Shown: positions 2,835 to 24,155 of the stretch, in pieces
Numbering within the stretch: position 1 is the stretch's first letter
Layout of the letters: each line of letters opens with the position of its first letter
Source: Escherichia coli
GTDB lineage: Bacteria; Pseudomonadota; Gammaproteobacteria; Enterobacterales; Enterobacteriaceae
Length of the DNA stretch: 64,000 bases
Direction: 5' to 3' (one strand)
Assembly: GCF_051903065.1 (NCBI RefSeq)
Contig: NZ_CP178438.1
The notes under the pieces: generated by a model
What the model was told of the DNA's origin: nothing
The model's database searches: none
Seen by the model: the letters and a program-made list of their open reading frames with translations, nothing else
Position numbers and translations under genes: made by a program

Positions 2835-3854
2835 TTAGTGGCTGCTGCGCTCGTCCTTGCGTGCACGACCTAATAACGTCAATGCTGCCTCGCGCGCGTT
2901 TTTTCCGCAATATAATACTTGATAAATTTCCTCGGTTATTGGCATTTCAACGCCGAAGCGATGCGCCAGTTCGCGGACTTCTTTCGTATTGCGGTAGCCT
3001 TCCACCACCTGACCAATCTTCTCCTGCGCGCTTTGTACATCCATGCCCTGACCGAGCATCATGCCAAAACGGCGGTTACGCGACTGGTTGTCGGTACAGG
3101 TAAGCACAAGATCGCCCAGCCCCGCCATGCCCATAAAGGTGGCAGGATCGGCACCCAGCGCCGCGCCAAGACGCGACATTTCAGCCAGCCCACGGGTGAT
3201 CAGCGCCGTACGCGCATTCGCACCAAAACCGATACCGTCGGACATCCCCGCACCAATGGCAATGACGTTTTTCACCGCGCCGCCAAGCTGCACGCCAATG
3301 AAATCCGGATTGCTGTAAACGCGGAAACTTTTGCCGCAGTGCAGCAGCTGCTGGAGATCATCGGCAAAGGTCTGATCGGTCGAGGCCAGCGAAATAGCTG
3401 TCGGTAAACCTGCCGCCAGTTCTTTCGCAAACGTTGGGCCAGAGATAACCGCCAGCGGAATTTGATCGCCTAACGCCTCGCGCGCCACGTCCTGTAACAG
3501 ACGTCCGGTTTCCGCTTCCAGCCCTTTGGTCGCCCACACCAGACGCGCATCAGGACGCATCAGCGGTTTAATCTGGCGCAGCACTTCACCAAAGACATGG
3601 CTGGGTACGACGACAAGAATATTACGGCTGGCGGCCAACGCGGTGGCGAGATCGCTTTCAAGATGGAGCGTATCGGGAAAAGGCACATCGGGGAGAAACG
3701 CGGCGTTACAGCGGTCGCGTTCAAGCGTTGCGATATGTTCAGGGTCATGGCCCCAGAGGACAACCTCGTGGCCATTTCTTGCCAGGGTGATGGCAAGAGC
3801 GGTGCCGTACGAGCCGGCACCGATCACAGTCATTGAAGCATTACGTTGGTTCAT
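2835..3854 (-). CDS. gpsA: NAD(P)H-dependent glycerol-3-phosphate dehydrogenase
   Basis: 339-aa [40 protein letters not shown]...; Rossmann GxGxxG motif. Confidence 0.93.
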
Positions 3855-8292: not shown

Positions 8293-9252
8293 TTGTTTCC
8301 ATTTCGTCGTAACGTTCTTGCATTTGCCGCTCTGTTGGCGCTCTCCTCCCCCGTACTTGCTGGCAAACTTGCCATCGTCATTGATGATTTTGGGTATCGC
8401 CCGCACAACGAAAACCAGGTGCTGGCGATGCCCTCCGCTATCTCCGTCGCTGTATTACCCGATTCACCGCACGCCAGAGAGATGGCGACCAAAGCGCATA
8501 ACAGCGGGCACGAAGTGTTGATTCATCTCCCGATGGCACCACTGAGTAAACAGCCGCTGGAGAAAAATACGCTGCGCCCGGAGATGAGCAGCGACGAAAT
8601 TGAGCGCATTATTCGTAGTGCGGTCAATAACGTGCCCTATGCCGTGGGGATCAACAACCACATGGGCAGCAAGATGACCTCTAACCTGTTTGGTATGCAG
8701 AAAGTGATGCAGGCGCTGGAGCGTTACAATCTTTACTTCCTCGACAGCGTAACCATTGGTAATACCCAGGCGATGCGCGCCGCGCAAGGCACTGGCGTGA
8801 AGGTTATTAAACGGAAGGTGTTCCTCGACGATTCACAGAACGAAGCGGACATCCGTGTGCAGTTCAATCGCGCAATTGATCTGGCGCGTCGCAACGGTTC
8901 AACCATTGCCATTGGGCATCCTCACCCTTCAACGGTACGCGTGCTACAACAGATGGTTTATAACCTGCCGCCAGACATTACGCTGGTGAAAGCCAGCAGC
9001 TTGCTGAATGAACCGCAGGTTGATACGTCTACACCGCCGAAAAACACTGTGCCCGACACACCGCGTAATCCGTTCCGTGGCGTGAAGCTGTGCAAACCGA
9101 AGAAACCGATAGAACCTGTTTATGCTAATCGCTTCTTTGAAGTATTAAGCGAAAGCATCAGCCAGAGCACGCTGATCGTTTACTTCCAGCATCAGTGGCA
9201 AGGCTGGGGCAAACAGCCCGAAGCGGCGAAACTTAACGCTAGCGCAAATTAA
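8293..9252 (+). CDS. yibQ: Divergent polysaccharide deacetylase family protein
   Basis: 319-aa ORF with signal peptide and conserved position after envC. Confidence 0.85.
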
Positions 9253-10273
9253 AGGCGCTACGCGTAATGCGATGGTGCGACCGCGTTTTGTCGCGCCATT
9301 GCCATAAGCGGAAAGACCACAGTAACGCCTGGTAACCCACCTTCACGCTGCGCACATTGGTAATCAGGCGCTTATACATACCAGAAGTAAATATCTCGGC
9401 AATCATCCGTTGGCGGGTAAGAATATCCGGCTCTTTGCGCACCGCATGGCAAACACGCAATGCTTCGTAAGTTATTTGCTGATGAAATTCCGGATAAATC
9501 GTAATTTTGTCGGCATAATTTCGATTTAATTTCTCCAGCAGGCGGGTAATCTTAATATAGTGACGTTGATAATTAAGGTTTTTATTCCCTTGTCTATGCA
9601 ACCGACTCACTGACGTATTATGCAGATAATATTTATATAATGATTGCTCGGTATATCGCGCACGCAGCGCGTTAAACATAAATTCCGTGGTCCAGATAAT
9701 ATCCTGATGATGTAATCCGGCAATAAATTTAATGTTATTTTTAACAATAACATCGCGGCGATAAACCCCCATCCAGACAACGTGAGTCCAACGGCGCGAA
9801 GAAAGCCCCATCCGCAGCCAGTCCGGGCCGGTTAATACACCGGTTGAGCGAAGGCGATCGCTGGGGATGGATTGCCAGGTTTCTCCCGTTTCACGAAAAC
9901 ACCAGTCAGCGTTGCACTGCGCCACGTCGAGGTCGTCCTCTAACGCCATGGTCATCAGCGTTTCGTACATGGTGGGATAGACTTCATCGTCAGCATCGAC
10001 AAAAGCGACATATTTGCCCGTTGCCACTTCAATCCCACGATTACGCGCCACCGATGCGCCAGCATTCGCCTGATGCAACAAACGAACGTGCGGATAGTTT
10101 TCTGCGTAATGCTTTGCTATTTCAACAGAATTATCCGTTGAACCATCGTTAATAATAATGATTTCCAGAGCAGTCCAGGTTTGCGTAATTAAAGATTCCA
10201 TACAAGTGCGGAAATCATCGCCCGCATTATATAACGGAATAATAACACTAAGTTTATTGGTGCTGTTCATCAT
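9239..10273 (-). CDS. waaH: GT2-family glycosyltransferase (LPS inner-core glucuronic acid transferase)
   Basis: 344-aa [24 protein letters not shown]...[11 protein letters not shown]...VDADDEV; GT2 DXD signature; position between yibQ and tdh. Confidence 0.85.
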
Positions 10274-11546: not shown

Positions 11547-12743
11547 TCAGGCGATAACGCCCAGTTGTTTACCAATACGCGTGAATGCTTCTACTGCGCG
11601 CGTAATTTGCTCAGGGGTATGCGCCGCAGACATCTGGGTACGAATACGCGCCTGACCTTTCGGAACGACCGGATAGAAGAAACCGGTGACGTAAATCCCC
11701 TCTTTTTGCAGCTCACGAGCAAATTTCTGCGCCACTACCGCATCGCCAAGCATGACCGGAATAATGGCGTGATCGGCTCCCGCCAGGGTAAAGCCCGCCG
11801 CCGACATTTGCTCACGGAACTGACGCGCGTTCGCCCACAGACGGTCACGCAGCTCGCTACCCGCTTCAACCATCTCCAGCACTTTAATGGAAGCGGCGAC
11901 AATAGCCGGTGCCAGCGAGTTGGAGAACAGGTACGGACGAGAACGCTGGCGCAGCCACTCAACCACTTCTTTGCGCGCCGCGGTATAACCACCAGAAGCC
12001 CCGCCCAGCGCTTTACCAAGCGTACCGGTGATAATATCGACCCGGCCCATCACATCGCAGTATTCATGGGAACCACGACCATTTTCACCGACAAAACCGA
12101 CCGCGTGGGAGTCGTCTACCATCACCAGGGCATCGTATTTATCTGCCAGATCGCAAACGCCCTTCAGATTGGCAATCACGCCGTCCATCGAGAACACACC
12201 ATCGGTGGCAATCAGCACATGACGCGCACCGGCTTCACGCGCTTCTTTCAGACGAGCTTCAAGCTCCTGCATATCGTTGTTGGCATAGCGATAGCGTTTA
12301 GCTTTACACAGACGCACACCATCAATAATAGACGCGTGGTTCAGTGCGTCGGAGATAATGGCGTCTTCCGCGCCCAGCAGCGTTTCAAACAGGCCACCGT
12401 TAGCATCAAAGCAGGAAGAGTAGAGAATCGCATCTTCCATCCCCAGGAATGCCGCCAGTTTTTGTTCAAGCTCTTTATGGCTGTCCTGAGTGCCGCAAAT
12501 AAAACGCACCGAAGCCATGCCGAAACCGTGAGAATCCATTCCCGCCTTTGCCGCCGCAATCAGATACGGATGATTCGCCAGCCCGAGATAGTTATTGGCA
12601 CAAAAGTTAATGACGTGGCTTCCATCAGCCACAGTGATATCTGCTTGCTGCGCAGACGTAATAATGCGCTCTTCTTTAAACAACCCTTCCGCCCGTGCGG
12701 TTTCCAGATCGTTGGTTAACTGCTGATAAAATTCTCCACGCAT
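11547..12743 (-). CDS. kbl: 2-amino-3-ketobutyrate CoA ligase (glycine C-acetyltransferase)
   Basis: 398-aa [41 protein letters not shown]...; PLP-dependent alpha-oxoamine synthase. Confidence 0.95.
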
Positions 12744-12956
12744 TGCGATTCTCCAGACAGGGCAAATTCCAGCACATATTACCCAAACTTATAGGTCGCG
12801 ACGAGATGACGCGTTAACACTTCTGCAAAATTCAGGATAAATAACGTCCATCAATCTCACTTTTGGCGAATGGCTGAAGCCAACGCCGTGTAGTGATATG
12901 ATAGAAGTATTCGTGTCTGAGATTGTCTCTGACTCCATAATTCGAAGGTTACAGTT

Positions 12957-13889
12957 ATGATCATCGTTACCGGCGGCGCGGGCTTTATCGGCAGCAACAT
13001 CGTTAAGGCCCTGAATGATAAAGGCATCACCGATATTCTGGTGGTGGACAATCTGAAAGACGGCACCAAGTTTGTGAACCTGGTGGATCTGGATATCGCG
13101 GACTATATGGATAAGGAAGACTTCCTGATCCAGATTATGGCTGGCGAAGAGTTCGGCGATGTCGAAGCGATTTTCCACGAAGGCGCGTGCTCTTCCACCA
13201 CCGAGTGGGATGGCAAGTATATGATGGATAACAACTATCAATACTCCAAAGAGCTGCTGCACTACTGTCTGGAGCGCGAAATCCCGTTCCTGTATGCCTC
13301 TTCCGCAGCCACCTACGGCGGACGCACCTCCGACTTTATTGAATCCCGCGAGTACGAAAAACCGTTGAACGTCTACGGTTACTCAAAATTCCTGTTTGAT
13401 GAATATGTTCGCCAAATCCTGCCTGAAGCGAACTCGCAGATTGTTGGCTTCCGCTATTTCAACGTTTATGGACCGCGTGAAGGCCATAAAGGCAGCATGG
13501 CGAGCGTCGCTTTCCATCTCAACACCCAGCTTAACAACGGTGAATCACCGAAGCTGTTTGAAGGTAGCGAGAACTTCAAACGCGACTTCGTCTATGTGGG
13601 CGACGTGGCTGATGTGAATCTGTGGTTCCTGGAAAATGGCGTTTCCGGCATCTTCAACCTCGGTACTGGTCGTGCGGAATCCTTCCAGGCTGTAGCTGAT
13701 GCTACGCTGGCTTATCACAAGAAAGGCCAGATCGAATACATTCCGTTCCCGGATAAACTGAAAGGCCGCTATCAGGCGTTCACTCAGGCAGATCTGACAA
13801 ATCTGCGCGCGGCGGGTTACGACAAACCGTTCAAAACCGTTGCTGAAGGTGTAACGGAATACATGGCCTGGCTGAATCGCGACGCATAA
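12957..13889 (+). CDS. hldD: ADP-L-glycero-D-manno-heptose 6-epimerase
   Basis: 310-aa [26 protein letters not shown]...; SDR/NAD-binding GxxGxxG. Confidence 0.95.
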
Positions 13890-17214: not shown

Positions 17215-18357
17215 TTAACCAAACCAGTCTTGTATTTGTGCTTCAAAACGCTGAGTAACATGTTCCCAGCTATATTTTGAGAAAACAAAATTTCGGGCAT
17301 TTTTAGCAATTTGAGCTCTGTCAGCATCCGCCAAAACTCGCTTAATATCCGCGAGAATACTTTCAGATGTCATAGGCTCTGCAAGGTGATAGCCTGTAAT
17401 TCCTTCCAGAACAAACTCACTAATTCCACCTTTTTGACTGGCAAGTACTGGTTTACCTGCCGCCATCGCTTCAACAGCTACCATACAAAAAGCTTCTTCT
17501 ACCTGAGAAGGAACAACAACTAAATCTGCTAAACGGTAATAGTTATGCATCTGCTCTGGAGGCTGTCCACCCGCCATAATGCATTGCGCTCCAATAGCTT
17601 TCGCTGCATCCAGAACTTTTTTCTGATATTCAGCTTTTTCGCCTTTTTTACTGGCAAAAGGATCTCCGACAATCACCAGTTTGAGGTTATCTTGTATCTT
17701 ATTCAGCTGATTAAAAGCCTCCATAAGCATCAGGCAACCTTTATCTGGTGATATCCTTCCTGCAAATAATAACACGGTATCATTTGCATCAATGTTCAGT
17801 TTCTGCCTCAAATCTTCAGTATTATTTTGTTCATACGATTCAGAACAAAAACCATTAGGCACAATAGCAATATTTGCATCAGGCATTTTTTCCGAATAGA
17901 AATCGAAAAGAAACTGGCTAGGAACAATTATCTTTGCATTTTTGTCTAACTCACCTGGCTCGAAAGCATTATGAAGATGCATAACTAGCTGCGCCTGAGG
18001 GCTTCTGCTACGAATCTGTTTATACAGCTTCATGCTATTGTGGATAACAATAACAGAGTCTTTCGGATCAGTGTTTTTAGGTTGGGTATTTAAAATACGC
18101 TGAGAATATGGCACAGGATCAAGTCGAGTCCACTTTTGGAAAAGTCGTTTATAGACTCGACTAAAACCAATGTAGTGAATATCACAGTGATCATTTACTT
18201 TTGTGTAGGTTGGGTAACCTTCGTTTCGAATACAGGCGATAGTTACTGGAATCGAAAGTCTTTTTGCGACCTGATAAATCCATGTTTCAACCGCTGCAGC
18301 TCCTTTTGGCGGTATAGAAAATATTGGTGTGACGGTAAATATTATTTTTTTAATCAT
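17215..18357 (-). CDS. waaK: GT4-family glycosyltransferase, terminal outer-core transferase (WaaK-like, putative GlcNAc transferase)
   Basis: ORF 17215-18405; likely start MIKKIIFTVTPIF... (about 380 aa); C-terminal GT4 motif EAFCMVAVEAMAAGKPVLASQKGGISEFVLEGITGY. K-12 has a GT9 heptosyltransferase (WaaU) at this position, so the core type here is not K-12. Confidence 0.7.
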   Translation of the reverse strand: MIKKIIFTVTPIFSIPPKGAAAVETWIYQVAKRLSIPVTIACIRNEGYPTYTKVNDHCDIHYIGFSRVYKRLFQKWTRLDPVPYSQRILNTQPKNTDPKDSVIVIHNSMKLYKQIRSRSPQAQLVMHLHNAFEPGELDKNAKIIVPSQFLFDFYSEKMPDANIAIVPNGFCSESYEQNNTEDLRQKLNIDANDTVLLFAGRISPDKGCLMLMEAFNQLNKIQDNLKLVIVGDPFASKKGEKAEYQKKVLDAAKAIGAQCIMAGGQPPEQMHNYYRLADLVVVPSQVEEAFCMVAVEAMAAGKPVLASQKGGISEFVLEGITGYHLAEPMTSESILADIKRVLADADRAQIAKNARNFVFSKYSWEHVTQRFEAQIQDWFG

Positions 18358-18409
18358 TATTAGCCAACTCCAATATAATTTATAACACGTAATAAACACA
18401 TACAAAATA

Positions 18410-19219
18410 TTAGCTTATTTTTTCATAAACACACGGCTCTTCAATTTCGGATATTTTCATATAGGGAATAATATCATATTGAATTGCAGTATCGTCGGAT
18501 AAATTATAAATATTGATATCTTCTATATTTTCACGCATAAAACGGAAAAATGGTAAAATTTTGAATAAATCCCGAGTCAACTCTGAGGGCATAGGATTCT
18601 TATCTTCATCATAGAAACGCGAACAGCTACCCGTTAAATCAAGGCCTGAACAGATAATACGAGCATACTTCAGCGAATAGGCTATTTGGATTGCAGCAAA
18701 AGCAACGGTATGGCATGAACAATAACCGAGGTTAATATCCTTGCAAAAGCCAACCAGACGACCTTTTTTAGAAAAAGGTACAGAGATCAGGAGCTCTTTA
18801 TGAATTCGGCTCAAAATATTAAACTTGATCTTCTTGATCAATCCACCTTTTTCTCTGCGGTAAAATGAACGTAGTACCAGGCAGTTTTGAAGGATGTACC
18901 GCTTATCTTCTTCAGAAGCATGTTCATAAACGTCAACATTTACGATGGTATAACGACTTCTCTGGCTAAATTTATAAAAATCATCACGCCGTTGATGTAA
19001 AAAGCGAACATCGGTAAGTACATAAATATAGGGAATAATATTATGACTTAATAGATATTGTGCAGAACCATTGACAGCAATAACATCCCTTGTCTGCAGC
19101 ACTGACAATGGTGTTTTTTGCGATGTGGGGCCGGAAAGAAAAATAATAACATCATCAGCCGTTTTACTTTCTATCAGGTTTTCAACATCTTTTTTGTCAA
19201 TGTATCTAATATTCTTCAT
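18410..19219 (-). CDS. waaZ: LPS core biosynthesis protein WaaZ (KDO transferase-like)
   Basis: 269-aa low-GC ORF in the conserved waaY-waaZ position; assignment is by synteny more than motif. Confidence 0.65.
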   Translation of the reverse strand: MKNIRYIDKKDVENLIESKTADDVIIFLSGPTSQKTPLSVLQTRDVIAVNGSAQYLLSHNIIPYIYVLTDVRFLHQRRDDFYKFSQRSRYTIVNVDVYEHASEEDKRYILQNCLVLRSFYRREKGGLIKKIKFNILSRIHKELLISVPFSKKGRLVGFCKDINLGYCSCHTVAFAAIQIAYSLKYARIICSGLDLTGSCSRFYDEDKNPMPSELTRDLFKILPFFRFMRENIEDINIYNLSDDTAIQYDIIPYMKISEIEEPCVYEKIS

Positions 19220-19290
19220 GATAAACCTGTGAAATAAGAACTCCGCATAGAAATGTCCTGACGAAGACGTTTAAATGTAAGACTTTTACT

Positions 19291-19989
19291 TTATCGTGCT
19301 GGCTTCCCTTTCAAACGCCGCATAAGATTACGTATTTTTTTACGATAAACTAAAAGATAATAACCGAGATCTTTAACCTCATTCTTAATACCATAATGTC
19401 GCTCTAAATCAATACGATCTTTCGCTTTACGTTGTGCAGATGCCCGTTTTCCTGAAAGATCAATAATGCGTACTTCACCATTTTCAATAATAAAATTACC
19501 GCGGTGAGGATCACCAGATACCATACCGTGTTCGTGTAATGAACGAATTGATTGTTGAATTTTATTTTTTAGCGAATCATCAATATCGGGGATATCACAC
19601 AACTCTACGCCATCGATATATTCGATAAGCATGATATAAGTATGGACAAAACGTAATGTTTTCCGTTCTGCCAACAAATAAAAATCATTGAGAGAATGTA
19701 GCCCCTCGTTACGCACTTTTTGAGTTTGCTCAAAAAGGCGTTCATAATAATCTCCCTTTAAAAGAGATTTAAAGAAACGTTCGTTGCGTTTTACTTTAGG
19801 CGAAAAAACTTTAAGTATCAATTTACCGTAATCGGTATCAATAAGCATGACTTTTGTATCATCTATAGAACGAAAAACTTTGATGATATTAATATCATAA
19901 GAAAGAAAGTCATTTAATACATTGAGATACTTTGAGTTATTTTCATCGGTAAAAACAACTAAATCTTTGATTTTATTCTTCTGAATCAT
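19291..19989 (-). CDS. waaY: LPS core heptose(II) kinase
   Basis: 232-aa ORF with kinase-like HRGN motif (SGDPHRGNFI); position between waaZ and waaJ. Confidence 0.8.
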   Translation of the reverse strand: MIQKNKIKDLVVFTDENNSKYLNVLNDFLSYDINIIKVFRSIDDTKVMLIDTDYGKLILKVFSPKVKRNERFFKSLLKGDYYERLFEQTQKVRNEGLHSLNDFYLLAERKTLRFVHTYIMLIEYIDGVELCDIPDIDDSLKNKIQQSIRSLHEHGMVSGDPHRGNFIIENGEVRIIDLSGKRASAQRKAKDRIDLERHYGIKNEVKDLGYYLLVYRKKIRNLMRRLKGKPAR

Positions 19990-20006
19990 GTTAAACCAGT
20001 TAAATG

Positions 20007-21023
20007 TTATTTACGGTAATATTTTCGGCAAAGATAACACACTCCTGCAATGAGTCCTGAGATATAATGATGTTGCACTAACAGATGTTTATATCTTTTT
20101 TTGAATTCAATAATTGATTTTGCATCTCGTGGTGAGTCATCTTTCCAGGGGGATCTTTCTAAAGCTATTTTATAGTATTTTACCGATGGATAAATTGCCC
20201 ATTTGTGCCACGGCTTGGTGGCCCCAGTATAATGAATAAGAAGAGTATCCTCTTTTATCAACTCTTTATATTTTTGATGCGTTTTATCTTTTAACTCACT
20301 TTTTATTGTATATATAGTATTGAACTCACGTGGCAGGAATATTGTCATCCCTTTTAGTAGGACATTCATAACGTCCTGGTCAGGATACTTATAAATACTA
20401 TCTTTACTCATAAGAATAGACAGTGCTTTTTCGGTTAGTTTTGCTTCTGTCCATTTTTTTAGGTCTAAGTAAACGACACCAGAATTAAAATACTGCCCCC
20501 GAAGTTCAGGATCAGATAATCTGACTACCGCCTTTTCCTGCATTGGGTCTACATCCCTGACTACTGCAGCCACCGCTCCATTAAACTCTAAATGCAATAG
20601 TTGACTAATATCTCCCTTACAAACTACATCTGCATCAAGATAAAGCAAACGATCAAGAGTTAAACCCAATAATTGAAATGCAAATAAACGGAAGTACATT
20701 GCTCTTGACCAGACCTGTGTACAAGGCAAGCACTGGAGCTTATCAGTGTTAATTCTATATAACGTGATTCTTAATTGGTATTGCTCTGCAAGCTTTGCAA
20801 CTTTTTGAAAAAAAGCATCATTATAAACATCAGCAATAATATAAAAATCAAGATTAATATGTCGATTATTTAGGACAATTGATGTGATGGAAACACCTAC
20901 ACCATCAAGATAATTAGCATCGACACCATAGGCAACATTTAAACATTCACAAGTATTTATATTAGCCAGCCGAAAATCCCAGGCTTTAACTTTATCTATC
21001 TCTATGGCAGGAAATGAGTCCAC
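20007..21023 (-). CDS. waaJ: GT8-family LPS outer-core 1,2-glycosyltransferase
   Basis: 338-aa ORF with GT8 motifs (YLDADVVC, FNSGVVYLDLKKW, DQDVMNVLL, HYTGATKPW). Confidence 0.8.
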   Translation of the reverse strand: MDSFPAIEIDKVKAWDFRLANINTCECLNVAYGVDANYLDGVGVSITSIVLNNRHINLDFYIIADVYNDAFFQKVAKLAEQYQLRITLYRINTDKLQCLPCTQVWSRAMYFRLFAFQLLGLTLDRLLYLDADVVCKGDISQLLHLEFNGAVAAVVRDVDPMQEKAVVRLSDPELRGQYFNSGVVYLDLKKWTEAKLTEKALSILMSKDSIYKYPDQDVMNVLLKGMTIFLPREFNTIYTIKSELKDKTHQKYKELIKEDTLLIHYTGATKPWHKWAIYPSVKYYKIALERSPWKDDSPRDAKSIIEFKKRYKHLLVQHHYISGLIAGVCYLCRKYYRK

Positions 21024-21062
21024 AATGCTACCCTTATATCATTACTTTATAGTTTCCCAGTT

Positions 21063-22082
21063 TTAATGCTTTATCTTTTCAATAAAATAAAAAAGATAGT
21101 TGCTAAACCCTTTTAGATATCTATGTTTTTTAAGCATATGTTTTGCGCTATATCTTAATTGATTGCTATTATTCGGTTTCAGCAACGCCGTATTCTTCCA
21201 TGGCGAAGCATTTTTTGCCTCCATAAATGCTTGTGATACAGGATAATCCCAGGCCCAATCATGCCAGGGCTTGGTTGGCCCGATATAATGGATAAAAATA
21301 GTATCGTTGGTAATTGGGTTTATAAAGTTATCTTTTAGTTGATAATTTAAGCTAAACTGGGTGTTATATTTAATATCAGCGAAAATAAGTTTATCTGCCA
21401 GCAACATATTTAATACATCCTGATCAGGATGTGTTATTTTTTTGATTATTTCTGGCTCATTTAGCATTGCAATGGCTCGTGTAGAAACCTGCTGAGCCGC
21501 CCATTTGGCAGTATTAATCAATAAAAAACCGGAGTTAAAGTAACCTTTAGCAATTCCCGCAACACCTAACGAATGGGCGCGTTTTTCCCACCAGTCAGCT
21601 TGCCCTTCAGAAACAACCATTGCGACTTTATCGTCAGGAAATGAGAATTTAATTAGTGGCTCAATAGTCCCCTGACAAATGATATCTGCATCCAGATAAA
21701 GGACTTTAGCCGCCTTATTAATAAAGTAATCTGCAATAACAAAACGGAAATATATTGCATGAGTCCAGTTCTTTGTGCTAGGCAATGAGCGTAGTCGGTC
21801 ACCATTAATCAGATATATTTTTATTCTGGTTTTATACTGTAACGCTAGGGCATCAAAATACTTACGATCATCATCACCAAAATAATCAGTAAAAATGTGG
21901 AAACACAACCGACTTCCTTCATTATACTTTAATATTGAAGCAATCGAAATTCCGCAACCAAATAGAAAGTTTTTGTCAGTTCCATAAGCGATGTCCAGAC
22001 AAAGATTTTCCGTTTCTACTTTATGATTATAATCAATAACTGAATTTAGAAACTCAGTTTCCTGGAATAATACCTGCTGCAT
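21063..22082 (-). CDS. waaI: GT8-family LPS outer-core 1,3-glycosyltransferase
   Basis: 339-aa ORF with GT8 motifs (YLDADIIC, FNSGFLLINTAKW, DQDVLNMLL, HYIGPTKPW); also known as waaO. Confidence 0.8.
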   Translation of the reverse strand: MQQVLFQETEFLNSVIDYNHKVETENLCLDIAYGTDKNFLFGCGISIASILKYNEGSRLCFHIFTDYFGDDDRKYFDALALQYKTRIKIYLINGDRLRSLPSTKNWTHAIYFRFVIADYFINKAAKVLYLDADIICQGTIEPLIKFSFPDDKVAMVVSEGQADWWEKRAHSLGVAGIAKGYFNSGFLLINTAKWAAQQVSTRAIAMLNEPEIIKKITHPDQDVLNMLLADKLIFADIKYNTQFSLNYQLKDNFINPITNDTIFIHYIGPTKPWHDWAWDYPVSQAFMEAKNASPWKNTALLKPNNSNQLRYSAKHMLKKHRYLKGFSNYLFYFIEKIKH

Positions 22083-23161
22083 TATTTCCTCCGGGAAATA
22101 GCAGAAATAATTATATTATGTAATCTATCGTAATACTTCAATTGATAAAACTTATCGATCGACGCAGGAATTTTTTCATGTTCGATATGAATTTCACCTG
22201 CTATATATTTATTTAGAAGAGTTACAAAACCAGCAATATCTCCCGGTTGATACAGATGGCCATTGACATCAGATTGAATAATGTCAGCAGGCCCGGAGAC
22301 ACAATCGGCACTAATACAAGGAATCCCCCATGATAAGGCTTCAAGCAGGGTCATTGGGAAACCTTCAAAAGATGACGTGAGCAGTAACGCACTCACTTTT
22401 TTAATATCTTGCTGGACCAATTCCCAGGGATGTTGTTGCCAACCATACCAGTCAATTCGATTATCAATATTTAGTTCTCTACTATAAGCCTGGCATTTTT
22501 CGAAATCGGAACCATCACCCAATACATGGAGTTTCCAGTTACCTTGCGCTTGTGATAAGCCATCAAACAGGTCTTTAACCCTCTTCTGGCCTTCAAATTT
22601 CATACGCCCAACATAAATGAATGTTGCCGTTTCGCCTTCCCCGGGTGCAGGAATGACTGAATTTTTCGCCTCGACGGGATTAAAAATAACGTTTATTGTC
22701 GATTCTGGTACACCCCGGCTAATCATTTGCCGTTTAATACCAGAGCTGATGGCTAAATGATAGTCGGCACAGGTGATATATTCAGCATGTTTTTTATGAT
22801 CTAAAGAAAAATGCGGCCATGAAAATACAGGTACATCAATCCCCGATTTTTTACGAGCTTTGGACGCATACAAACACGAGATCACGTCAATACAAATAAC
22901 AACATCTGGCTGATAATCCTGAAGCCATTTGCTTAAAGCATGAATATGTTTCGCGCGACGCAAAAAACCTAAGCGAATATTGGAAAATGAACAAGAGTAC
23001 TTAATATCTTCCAGCCACCCCTTATCCATTTTGTCATTACGACAAAAGAAAAACATTTCACTTTGGATATGTTGTTGCCTGAAGGTAGTAATAACATCAC
23101 GAATGACTGTTTCCATGCCGCCAAAACCAGAAACAGCTTCGCCAATAAAGGCTATTTTCAT
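22082..23161 (-). CDS. waaB: GT4-family LPS 1,6-galactosyltransferase
   Basis: 359-aa ORF MKIAFIGEAVSGFGGMETV... with C-terminal GT4 motif SSFEGFPMTLLEALSWGIPCIS. Confidence 0.85.
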   Translation of the reverse strand: MKIAFIGEAVSGFGGMETVIRDVITTFRQQHIQSEMFFFCRNDKMDKGWLEDIKYSCSFSNIRLGFLRRAKHIHALSKWLQDYQPDVVICIDVISCLYASKARKKSGIDVPVFSWPHFSLDHKKHAEYITCADYHLAISSGIKRQMISRGVPESTINVIFNPVEAKNSVIPAPGEGETATFIYVGRMKFEGQKRVKDLFDGLSQAQGNWKLHVLGDGSDFEKCQAYSRELNIDNRIDWYGWQQHPWELVQQDIKKVSALLLTSSFEGFPMTLLEALSWGIPCISADCVSGPADIIQSDVNGHLYQPGDIAGFVTLLNKYIAGEIHIEHEKIPASIDKFYQLKYYDRLHNIIISAISRRK

Positions 23162-23174
23162 AATTACATTCCAG

Positions 23175-24155
23175 CTAAATATTTAAGCAAAACAATTTAA
23201 CAAGTAAATACTTATAATAATAAGAAATGGCTTTCCAATATTTTCCTTCTAACCAAAAAACTTTAGACTTTAACCTAATCTCACTTGATGATGGAGCTAG
23301 TTTTCTTTTATAGTTCTTCCATGGGGAATTTGAAAAATAATGATCAAAATTTTGCGCTCTAAATATTTTGTACCATGGTTTATTCGGAGTTACATAATGC
23401 ATTATAATTGTGTTTGGCAAGTTTTTTTGCTCTTCATCACATCGTACTGACAATGTTGTCTTATTATTGTACTTGTTATTAAGGTAATGTACTCGTCCAT
23501 TAAGTAAAATATTAAGCACATCCTGATCTGCATATCTATATACTTTCCCACTGTTGATCATCTCTAAAGCTTTTTGTGTTATATTATGTTTTTTCCATGC
23601 GCTGGTATTAATAAGCATAACCCCGGCATTAAAATAATCCACAAACTCAATGCCATAATCTAATTTTTTTACACGTTCTTGCATTTCTGGTGAGTCTGGA
23701 ATTACACATGCAATATTAGCATTTAAATTATAATCAACCAGTTCATCTAAATGGCTATTACATATGACATCACAGTCAAGATAAAGTATATTATTTATTT
23801 TATCATCAATAACTTCTGGGATTAAGAAACGTAAACATGTTGATAAAGGAATACCAAGAACTAATGTATCCGGATTAATGTCAAATTTATCAGTTATATA
23901 ATATACAGATATTGATGTATGAGGACCTTCTAGCTCGTAAAAAGCTGAACACTCTTTTTCTTCTATGCCTGATATAAGAAGGTGAAAATGAAGGTTAATA
24001 TGACTATTGTTGGATATAATTGAATATAATGCAACGCCTGCTGGCATTATGAATTCATAATCAAAGCATAGTGCAATATGTAAATGTTTAACATATGACA
24101 GTTCGTTTTGGAATAAATCTTGCCTCTTAGCAACGAAATTTCTATATTTCAACAA
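23175..24155 (-). CDS. GT8-like glycosyltransferase occupying the waaS position (very AT-rich)
   Basis: 326-aa ORF with GT8 motifs (YLDCDVICN, FNAGVMLINTSAW, DQDVLNILL, HYVTPNKPW), between waaP and waaB. I cannot confirm from memory whether it is orthologous to K-12 WaaS. Confidence 0.6.
   Translation of the reverse strand: MLKYRNFVAKRQDLFQNELSYVKHLHIALCFDYEFIMPAGVALYSIISNNSHINLHFHLLISGIEEKECSAFYELEGPHTSISVYYITDKFDINPDTLVLGIPLSTCLRFLIPEVIDDKINNILYLDCDVICNSHLDELVDYNLNANIACVIPDSPEMQERVKKLDYGIEFVDYFNAGVMLINTSAWKKHNITQKALEMINSGKVYRYADQDVLNILLNGRVHYLNNKYNNKTTLSVRCDEEQKNLPNTIIMHYVTPNKPWYKIFRAQNFDHYFSNSPWKNYKRKLAPSSSEIRLKSKVFWLEGKYWKAISYYYKYLLVKLFCLNI

Follow-up and report, generated by a model that had tools for sequence, protein, structure and literature searches.

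In the window, by which we mean the whole 64,000-nt stretch of Escherichia coli DNA that was analysed, kbl and hldD (rfaD) are divergently transcribed, kbl from the minus strand and hldD from the plus strand, and the spacer between them is gene-free (Table 1). The original prediction put about 210 bp and no gene here, and the exact length is 213 bp. The Kbl protein is 100% identical to that annotated in E. coli SC516 and 99.7% identical to that of K-12, and the hldD ORF matches the annotated rfaD in every E. coli match. The ORFs that touch the spacer, namely an antisense frame that runs into hldD (12789..13262, minus strand) and several short overlaps, are antisense or overlapping artefacts. 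Three blocks on the kbl side are conserved across genera and presumably are promoter or regulator sites of kbl-tdh. One strand of the spacer would therefore form the kbl-tdh promoter side, while the other is predicted to carry an extended -10 promoter for hldD, a short hairpin in the leader and the ribosome-binding site of hldD.

Table 1. Features of the kbl-hldD locus in the window, with the stretches matched in the K-12 sequence (L001)
Feature	Coordinates	Strand	Details
kbl (glycine C-acetyltransferase)	11547..12743	-	398-aa ORF; first gene of the kbl-tdh operon; left flank
Left match to K-12	12644-12847		K-12 L001 3201-3404; 99.5% identity, pairwise blastn
kbl-hldD intergenic region	12744..12956	.	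Empty (ancestral-type) allele of the htrL site
kbl-proximal half of the spacer	12744..12847	-	Common to K-12 (99.5%); delimited by blastn breakpoints and cross-genus conservation
kbl Shine-Dalgarno	12750-12756	-	Complement of TCTCCAG
Conserved block GCACATATTACCCAAA	12772-12787		kbl side; cross-genus alignment
Conserved block ACGAGATGA	12801-12809		kbl side; cross-genus alignment
Conserved block CAGGATAAATAACG	12833-12846		kbl side; cross-genus alignment
Segment missing from the K-12-type allele	12848..12908		61 bp; 1283-bp htrL cassette there in K-12
Putative sigma-70 hldD promoter	12874..12902	+	-35-like CTGAAG 12874-12879, 17-bp spacer, extended -10 TGaTATGAT 12894-12902
Right match to K-12	12909-13056		K-12 L001 4688-4835; 98.6% identity, pairwise blastn
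hldD leader hairpin	12915..12933	+	GTCTGAGA / loop TTG / TCTCTGAC; 8 pairs, one T.T mismatch
hldD Shine-Dalgarno AAGG	12945-12948	+	12 nt downstream of the hairpin
hldD/rfaD (ADP-glyceromanno-heptose 6-epimerase)	12957..13889	+	310-aa ORF; first gene of hldD-waaF-waaC-waaL; right flank

In the annotation of K-12 MG1655, the interval between kbl and rfaD measures 1435 bp and holds yibB (synonym htrL; 858 bp, minus strand). The gene's position as given in the original prediction was thus correct, and its proviso that K-12 might also have only about 200 bp here fell away. The K-12 locus (b3617-b3619) and that of the window share the flanking genes, their orientation and the leader, and they are 98.6-99.5% identical over the 104 bp beside kbl and the final 48 bp before the hldD ATG. 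They are unlike each other in between. The blastn breakpoints fall at 12847/12909 in the window and at 3404/4688 in K-12 (L001), and they enclose 61 bp in the window versus 1283 bp in K-12, which comprise yibB, a terminator, an AT-rich H-NS-bound spacer and a variant hldD -35 to -10 stretch. The right ~40 of the 61 bp correspond, in diverged form, to the K-12 sequence that precedes the common leader (GGCTGAAG ... TGnTATGAT). The difference between the window and K-12 is a replacement, not a clean indel, and the replaced stretch takes in part of the hldD promoter. Within the 61 bp, conservation is lowest at ~12848-12864, which is the insertion zone in other taxa, and the right part (12865-12908) corresponds to the native hldD promoter.

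An alignment to the K-12 interval and a search for htrL remnants had been proposed as a check. The alignment yielded the breakpoints given above, but remnants did not come to light. K-12 HtrL searched by tblastn against the whole 64-kb window gave a best E value of 5.5 and no homologue, the K-12 cassette searched by blastn gave one 14-bp chance match in the whole window, outside the spacer, and no ORF in the window resembles a member of the HtrL_YibB family (PF09612). The window strain is without the accessory HtrL enzyme.

How common are the two arrangements? An 813-bp query (12444-13256) was compared by megablast with 5426 complete E. coli genomes, and 5424 of these matched. The empty form is unbroken in 3465 of the 5426 genomes. 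The rest of the matching genomes (5424 - 3465 = 1959) have a spacer match that is split into a kbl half and a hldD half, and the 1283-bp cassette, used as a query in its own right, was found in 1959 of the 5426, nearly full length in 1950. Because the count of split matches equals the count of cassette matches, complete E. coli genomes fall into two states with no third cargo, bar rare partial deletions such as that in PKF8. The 64/36% split is a database census in which K-12 derivatives and O157:H7 are over-represented, and not a population frequency. Even so, the 3465 contiguous versus 1959 cassette-bearing genomes bear out the presence/absence polymorphism proposed in the original prediction. 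Variation of this type is already known for accessory genes, and htrL was among the variable genes in a pangenome comparison of urinary tract infection (UTI) isolates (PMC8303582).

In E. coli PKF8 (NZ_CP156813.1, ~2949605-2950170), only the hldD-proximal 17% of the cassette is left and the kbl side is unmatched, a rare case of partial deletion.

The empty allele is 213 bp long in all seven other empty E. coli alleles compared, and in E. albertii. The window spacer is identical to that of E. coli 19KM1776. The spacers of LS4, ETEC4067 and BMH-17-0027 depart from it by 1-2 SNPs and that of 04-00955 by 7; E. coli SC516 is 100% identical to the window across the 813-bp query. A divergent empty allele occurs in E. 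coli 51008369SK1 (L096 590-802), with differences from the window at 34 of 213 positions, compared with 14 for E. albertii. About 483 genomes lie in the identity band of this divergent allele (90-95% by megablast), and the sequence of the 51008369SK1-type allele suggests import from outside typical E. coli.

Species-representative genomes were scanned with the window HldD, and the resulting 80 loci, which do not include Salmonella or E. fergusonii, were sorted by tblastn for Kbl and HtrL. In 63 Enterobacterales loci kbl is upstream of hldD, and 57 of these 63 have gaps of 212-306 bp. The gap is 213 bp in E. albertii and in the GTDB E. coli representative, 214 bp in Citrobacter sp. FP75 and C. 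werkmanii, 215 bp in Enterobacter, 216 bp in Kluyvera and Pluralibacter, and ~230-280 bp in Erwinia, Pantoea, Serratia, Yersinia, Photorhabdus and Providencia. Only one of the 63 gaps (Enterobacter sp. Ag1) contains htrL. The window spacer, including the 61 bp that are missing in K-12, aligns over its full length with 17 other Enterobacteriaceae spacers (212-216 bp), among them those of E. albertii, Citrobacter, Enterobacter and Kluyvera. The predominance of short gaps, the full-length alignment with outgroups and the lack of any htrL trace together argue that the empty form is ancestral. The short 213-bp layout is the majority state in E. coli and appears to be ancestral in Enterobacterales, and K-12 appears to carry a derived insertion or replacement. 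The description of htrL as absent from this locus is thus right in that the gene is missing from the window, but its polarity is reversed: the window has the majority form, very probably the ancestral one, and K-12 would have gained a gene.

Adjacent divergent genes, a spacer of ~213 bp, no cassette DNA and a spacer that can be aligned with outgroups are all found in the window, as in an empty allele. We read the interval as a gene-free divergent control region that represents the empty allele of an insertion polymorphism, with the K-12-type cassette spread by recombination, and assign this reading a probability of about 0.88. In K-12, O157:H7, O104:H4 and others, a low-GC cassette of ~1.28 kb would have replaced 61 bp of ancestral spacer. 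For annotation, this means that nothing is missing or broken in the window, that there is no pseudogene to record, and that the empty allele is not to be scored as a deletion. It is the K-12 reference that is in the unusual state at the kbl-hldD site.

Could the window lineage nonetheless once have carried the cassette? It may have done so and then regained the empty state through homologous replacement from another E. coli. Both K-12-type and R4-type LPS cores occur with and without htrL, and a very divergent empty allele is in circulation, as might be expected if alleles are exchanged in this way. However, nothing specific to the window chromosome points to such an event, its spacer being identical to common empty alleles, and the product of a replacement looks the same as vertical inheritance in the present data; we consider this history unlikely. 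Far less probable is a simple deletion from a K-12-like, htrL-bearing ancestor. That htrL is carried by K-12 and by 36% of complete genomes, and that PKF8 displays a partial deletion of the cassette, gives the idea some initial appeal, but a deletion cannot recreate the 61 bp at 12848-12908, which can be aligned with E. albertii, Citrobacter and other genera and which, by blastn, are not a rearranged piece of the cassette. It also sits poorly with the lack of htrL remnants in the window and with the invariable 213-bp length of the seven further empty E. coli alleles that were compared.

The GC content of the K-12 cassette, 0.36, is below that of kbl (0.54), hldD (0.51) and the window (0.49). 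From the kbl side, the cassette opens with ~95 bp of unique sequence, followed by a terminator-like hairpin that is bidirectional (L001 3500-3531), yibB (L001 3575-4432, minus strand), an AT-rich spacer and the variant hldD promoter stretch. It is a self-contained unit of terminator, htrL and AT-rich promoter spacer, to which the variant promoter stretch of hldD is joined. The K-12 htrL-hldD spacer has been listed as H-NS-bound with RpoD promoters (Shimada et al., PMC3946193), and H-NS binding fits the foreign, AT-rich nature of the cassette. The K-12 junctions show neither terminal inverted repeats nor a target duplication, and the cassette has no transposase, integrase or recombinase gene, yibB being its sole CDS; with no such signatures a transposon, insertion sequence or integron cassette was rejected. 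The one repeat connected with the K-12 junctions, an inverted match of 11 bp (blastn E = 0.28) that lies 160 bp into the cassette, is probably due to chance.

A protein search recovered HtrL orthologues with 67-82% amino acid identity in Cedecea davisae, Citrobacter amalonaticus, Atlantibacter hermannii and one further genome. All are encoded between hldD and kbl in the K-12 orientation, and the orthologue of Enterobacter sp. Ag1 lies at the same junction. The insertion in K-12, Enterobacter sp. Ag1 and C. youngae starts right after an ATAAAT(A/C)ACG block and ends before GGCTGAAG; the left ends in C. amalonaticus, Cedecea davisae and the further genome fit the same point, and all resume at GGCTGAAG. 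Across genera, htrL-bearing alleles have one common hldD promoter haplotype (GGCTGAAGGGAT..ATGTGATGGTATGATTA). In Cedecea davisae, the first 150 nt of hldD are 79% identical to K-12 and the leader is nearly identical, and Cedecea neteri, which is without htrL, has a different leader. The simplest reading of these sequences is a joint transfer of cassette, promoter and leader between genera, in recombination events whose limits lay in the conserved blocks and at the beginning of hldD. Exchange both within E. coli and between genera would then occur through recombination in the conserved flanks. A leader of the E. coli/Citrobacter type combined with a native hldD coding sequence was observed in Cedecea davisae, Atlantibacter hermannii, Enterobacter sp. 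Ag1 and C. amalonaticus (L102, L103, L026 and L100).

Citrobacter youngae has a low-GC gene for a WaaB-like GT4 glycosyltransferase of 383 aa at the exact htrL insertion point (L072 3052-4203). The protein scores 383 bits with NF007396, for which the cut-off is 385. Because this is a different glycosyltransferase gene at the same point, the variable middle of the spacer is a recurrent landing place for LPS genes.

More distant YibB homologues (53-61%) occur elsewhere in the genomes of Salmonella, C. freundii and some E. coli, and the Salmonella and E. coli copies adjoin icd. The paralogues beside icd in Salmonella Saintpaul (L098 4001-4858) and E. coli (L101 4001-4975) have 59-61% amino acid identity to K-12 YibB, and the E. 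coli copy has an IS1 transposase gene adjacent. Salmonella was considered as an htrL-bearing outgroup at the kbl-hldD site and rejected, as its yibB homologue (61% amino acid identity) is the paralogue near icd.

The cassette may also bear on the control of hldD. The arrangement GGCTGAAG, 17 bp, TGnTATGAT is conserved in all aligned Enterobacteriaceae, with or without htrL, and the TGn directly before a TATAAT-like hexamer, as in an extended -10 element, is invariant or near-invariant across genera. The putative -35 element matches the consensus at only 3 of 6 positions. A consensus scan of the spacer called neither a promoter nor a terminator, and the scanner missed the putative hldD promoter because its -35 is weak. 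The predicted transcription start of hldD lies near the invariant ATT at 12909-12911. In K-12, heat induction of rfaD/htrM has been reported. A sigma-32-like motif, CATGAA-N13-CCCAAACT, was observed upstream of hldD in the K-12 cassette DNA (L001 4584-4610), and it might be linked to this induction; it is absent from the window and unconserved in the other htrL-bearing genera. As the hldD promoter haplotype that comes with the cassette is a different one, the two allele classes may differ in how the first inner-core operon is regulated.

Between the predicted start and the hldD Shine-Dalgarno lies a hairpin with a folding energy of -6.4 kcal/mol (z -2.24). Its 8-pair helix was set by hand and then tested with controls. 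In a plain MAFFT alignment of 26 Enterobacteriaceae (A1), 79.8% of cells are paired versus 70.4% after shuffling, with 28 double changes versus 9.1, and no slid control exceeds 57.6%. The alignment fitted to the model (A3; 47 sequences), which leans towards structure, gives 84.8% paired versus 64.6% and 73 double changes versus 25.7, with slid controls of at most 53.5%. Of the 8 pairs, 6 have double changes on A1 and 7 on A3, and the covariation score is above that of all 500 shuffles. In an alignment-free test of 64 kbl-adjacent loci, the segment -55..-12 had a z of -1.35 on average. RNAalifold, run on the MAFFT alignment, retrieved only the 5 inner pairs, owing to a register shift in the 3' arm.

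The hairpin in the predicted hldD leader is kept by compensatory substitutions across genera. Stems are GUCCGGG/CCCGGAC in Enterobacter, CCCUGGA/UCCAGGG in Kluyvera, GUGAAAC/GUUUCAC in Erwinia, GUGGAGCAC/GUGCUCCAC in Dickeya and AAUCACGCA/UGCGUGAUU in Rahnella, and hairpins with unrelated stems occupy the same place in Erwinia, Dickeya, Serratia, Yersinia and Rahnella. In the minimum free energy fold of the predicted leader, the hairpin is separate from the Shine-Dalgarno, which stays unsequestered. A classical RNA thermometer was considered and is disfavoured: unlike in RNA thermometers, the hldD Shine-Dalgarno is free, the hairpin ending 12 nt before AAGG. The hairpin is perhaps a 5'-proximal leader stem-loop that stabilises the message. 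It resembles the ompA-type stabilising stem-loops in that it is short and lies a few nucleotides from the predicted 5' end, but its 5'-proximity depends on a predicted start, and it has no match in Rfam.

More speculatively, the hairpin could be an undescribed, Enterobacterales-wide cis-regulatory RNA of heptose and inner-core synthesis, and the promoter swap that comes with the cassette (in K-12 together with ~1.2 kb of H-NS-bound DNA upstream) could make regulation of hldD-waaFCL differ between htrL-plus and htrL-minus strains. We hold this as a tentative idea that is rather doubtful as it stands. If it were true, the K-12 picture of rfaD/htrM heat induction might fail for roughly two thirds of strains, those with the empty allele.

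That a small protein or small RNA missed by annotation is encoded in the spacer and takes over the function of htrL is highly improbable, for although a 49-codon ATG-started ORF (12789-12938, minus strand) and a conserved hairpin are present, the 49-aa product has zero NCBIfam matches, the ORF spans the least conserved part of the spacer with indels between related genera, and the hairpin, which lies between the hldD -10 and the Shine-Dalgarno and is best read as hldD leader, is accompanied by no terminator-like site and by no match at E ≤ 1 in a scan of 12000-13700 with the Rfam 15 covariance models.

What does HtrL do in the strains that have it? K-12 YibB matches Pfam PF09612 (HtrL_YibB) with 435.9 bits as well as the NCBIfam YibB equivalogs TIGR02192 and NF008462, and NCBI gives distant members the name ‘WlaTC/HtrL family glycosyltransferase’. 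Family members are encoded in LPS or LOS loci of Acinetobacter, Campylobacter and Salmonella, those of Acinetobacter being in LOS loci (PMC4172580), whereas the window encodes none. A search of PDB sequences with HtrL gave no significant match. An AlphaFold2 model built from 34 homologues has a pLDDT of 91.9 and resembles GT-A glycosyltransferases, among them the GT6 blood-group transferases, alpha-1,3-GalT, xyloside xylosyltransferase and GfsA, at TM scores of only 0.38-0.46. Based on the model, HtrL is a probable LPS glycosyltransferase of GT-A fold. The 36/64 split of htrL, which in some lineages does not follow core type, provides natural isogenic-like contrasts that could help to find the HtrL product.

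The nearby waa locus is known for replacement polymorphism, with LPS core types R1-R4 and K-12 in the Heinrichs/Whitfield/Amor classification, and polysaccharide loci undergo similar cassette exchange by recombination in conserved flanks. The htrL site is alike in that conserved housekeeping flanks enclose a low-GC, LPS-related gene in some genomes and not in others, mobile-element signatures are lacking, and another glycosyltransferase gene occupies the site in another species. It is unlike waa core-type variation in that htrL forms a unit of one gene that belongs to none of the three waa operons and is not strictly bound to core type. We read the waa region in 17 E. coli loci, 9 htrL-bearing and 8 empty, including MG1655 and SC516, and tabulated them alongside the window; core types were assigned from gene content with reference to the published schemes. 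The htrL-bearing loci have a K-12-type core in MG1655 and BH212, an R3-type core in O157, O104:H4, 2012EL-2448, Z1323PEC0013, STN0717-11 and 26a, and an R4-type core in H6. Among the empty loci, the core is R2-like in the window, SC516 and 51008369SK1, R4-type in 19KM1776, BMH-17-0027 and 04-00955, R1-type in ETEC4067 and K-12-type in LS4. In this sample, R3 and K-12 cores mostly come with htrL, R1 and R2-like cores come without it, and R4 and K-12-type cores occur with both states. Across the 17 loci and the window, htrL status correlates with core type and is not fixed to it. A strict linkage was rejected on account of LS4, whose K-12-type core comes without htrL, and H6, in which htrL accompanies an R4-type core. 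The suggestion that this locus is prone to recombination finds support in this uncoupling, in the empty allele that diverges at 34 of 213 positions, and in the presence of the cassette at the same point in other genera.

The window itself encodes an R2-like outer core at 17215-24155, judged from gene content only, with a waaK-type GlcNAc transferase gene (17215-18405) followed by waaZ, waaY, waaJ, waaO and waaB. A GT8-family gene (23175-24155) lies at the position of waaS in K-12. On the other side of kbl, a waaH/yibD-like glycosyltransferase gene (9239-10273) is intact in the window and encodes 344 aa, and the copy in SC516 (L083 2053-3864) is interrupted by IS1.
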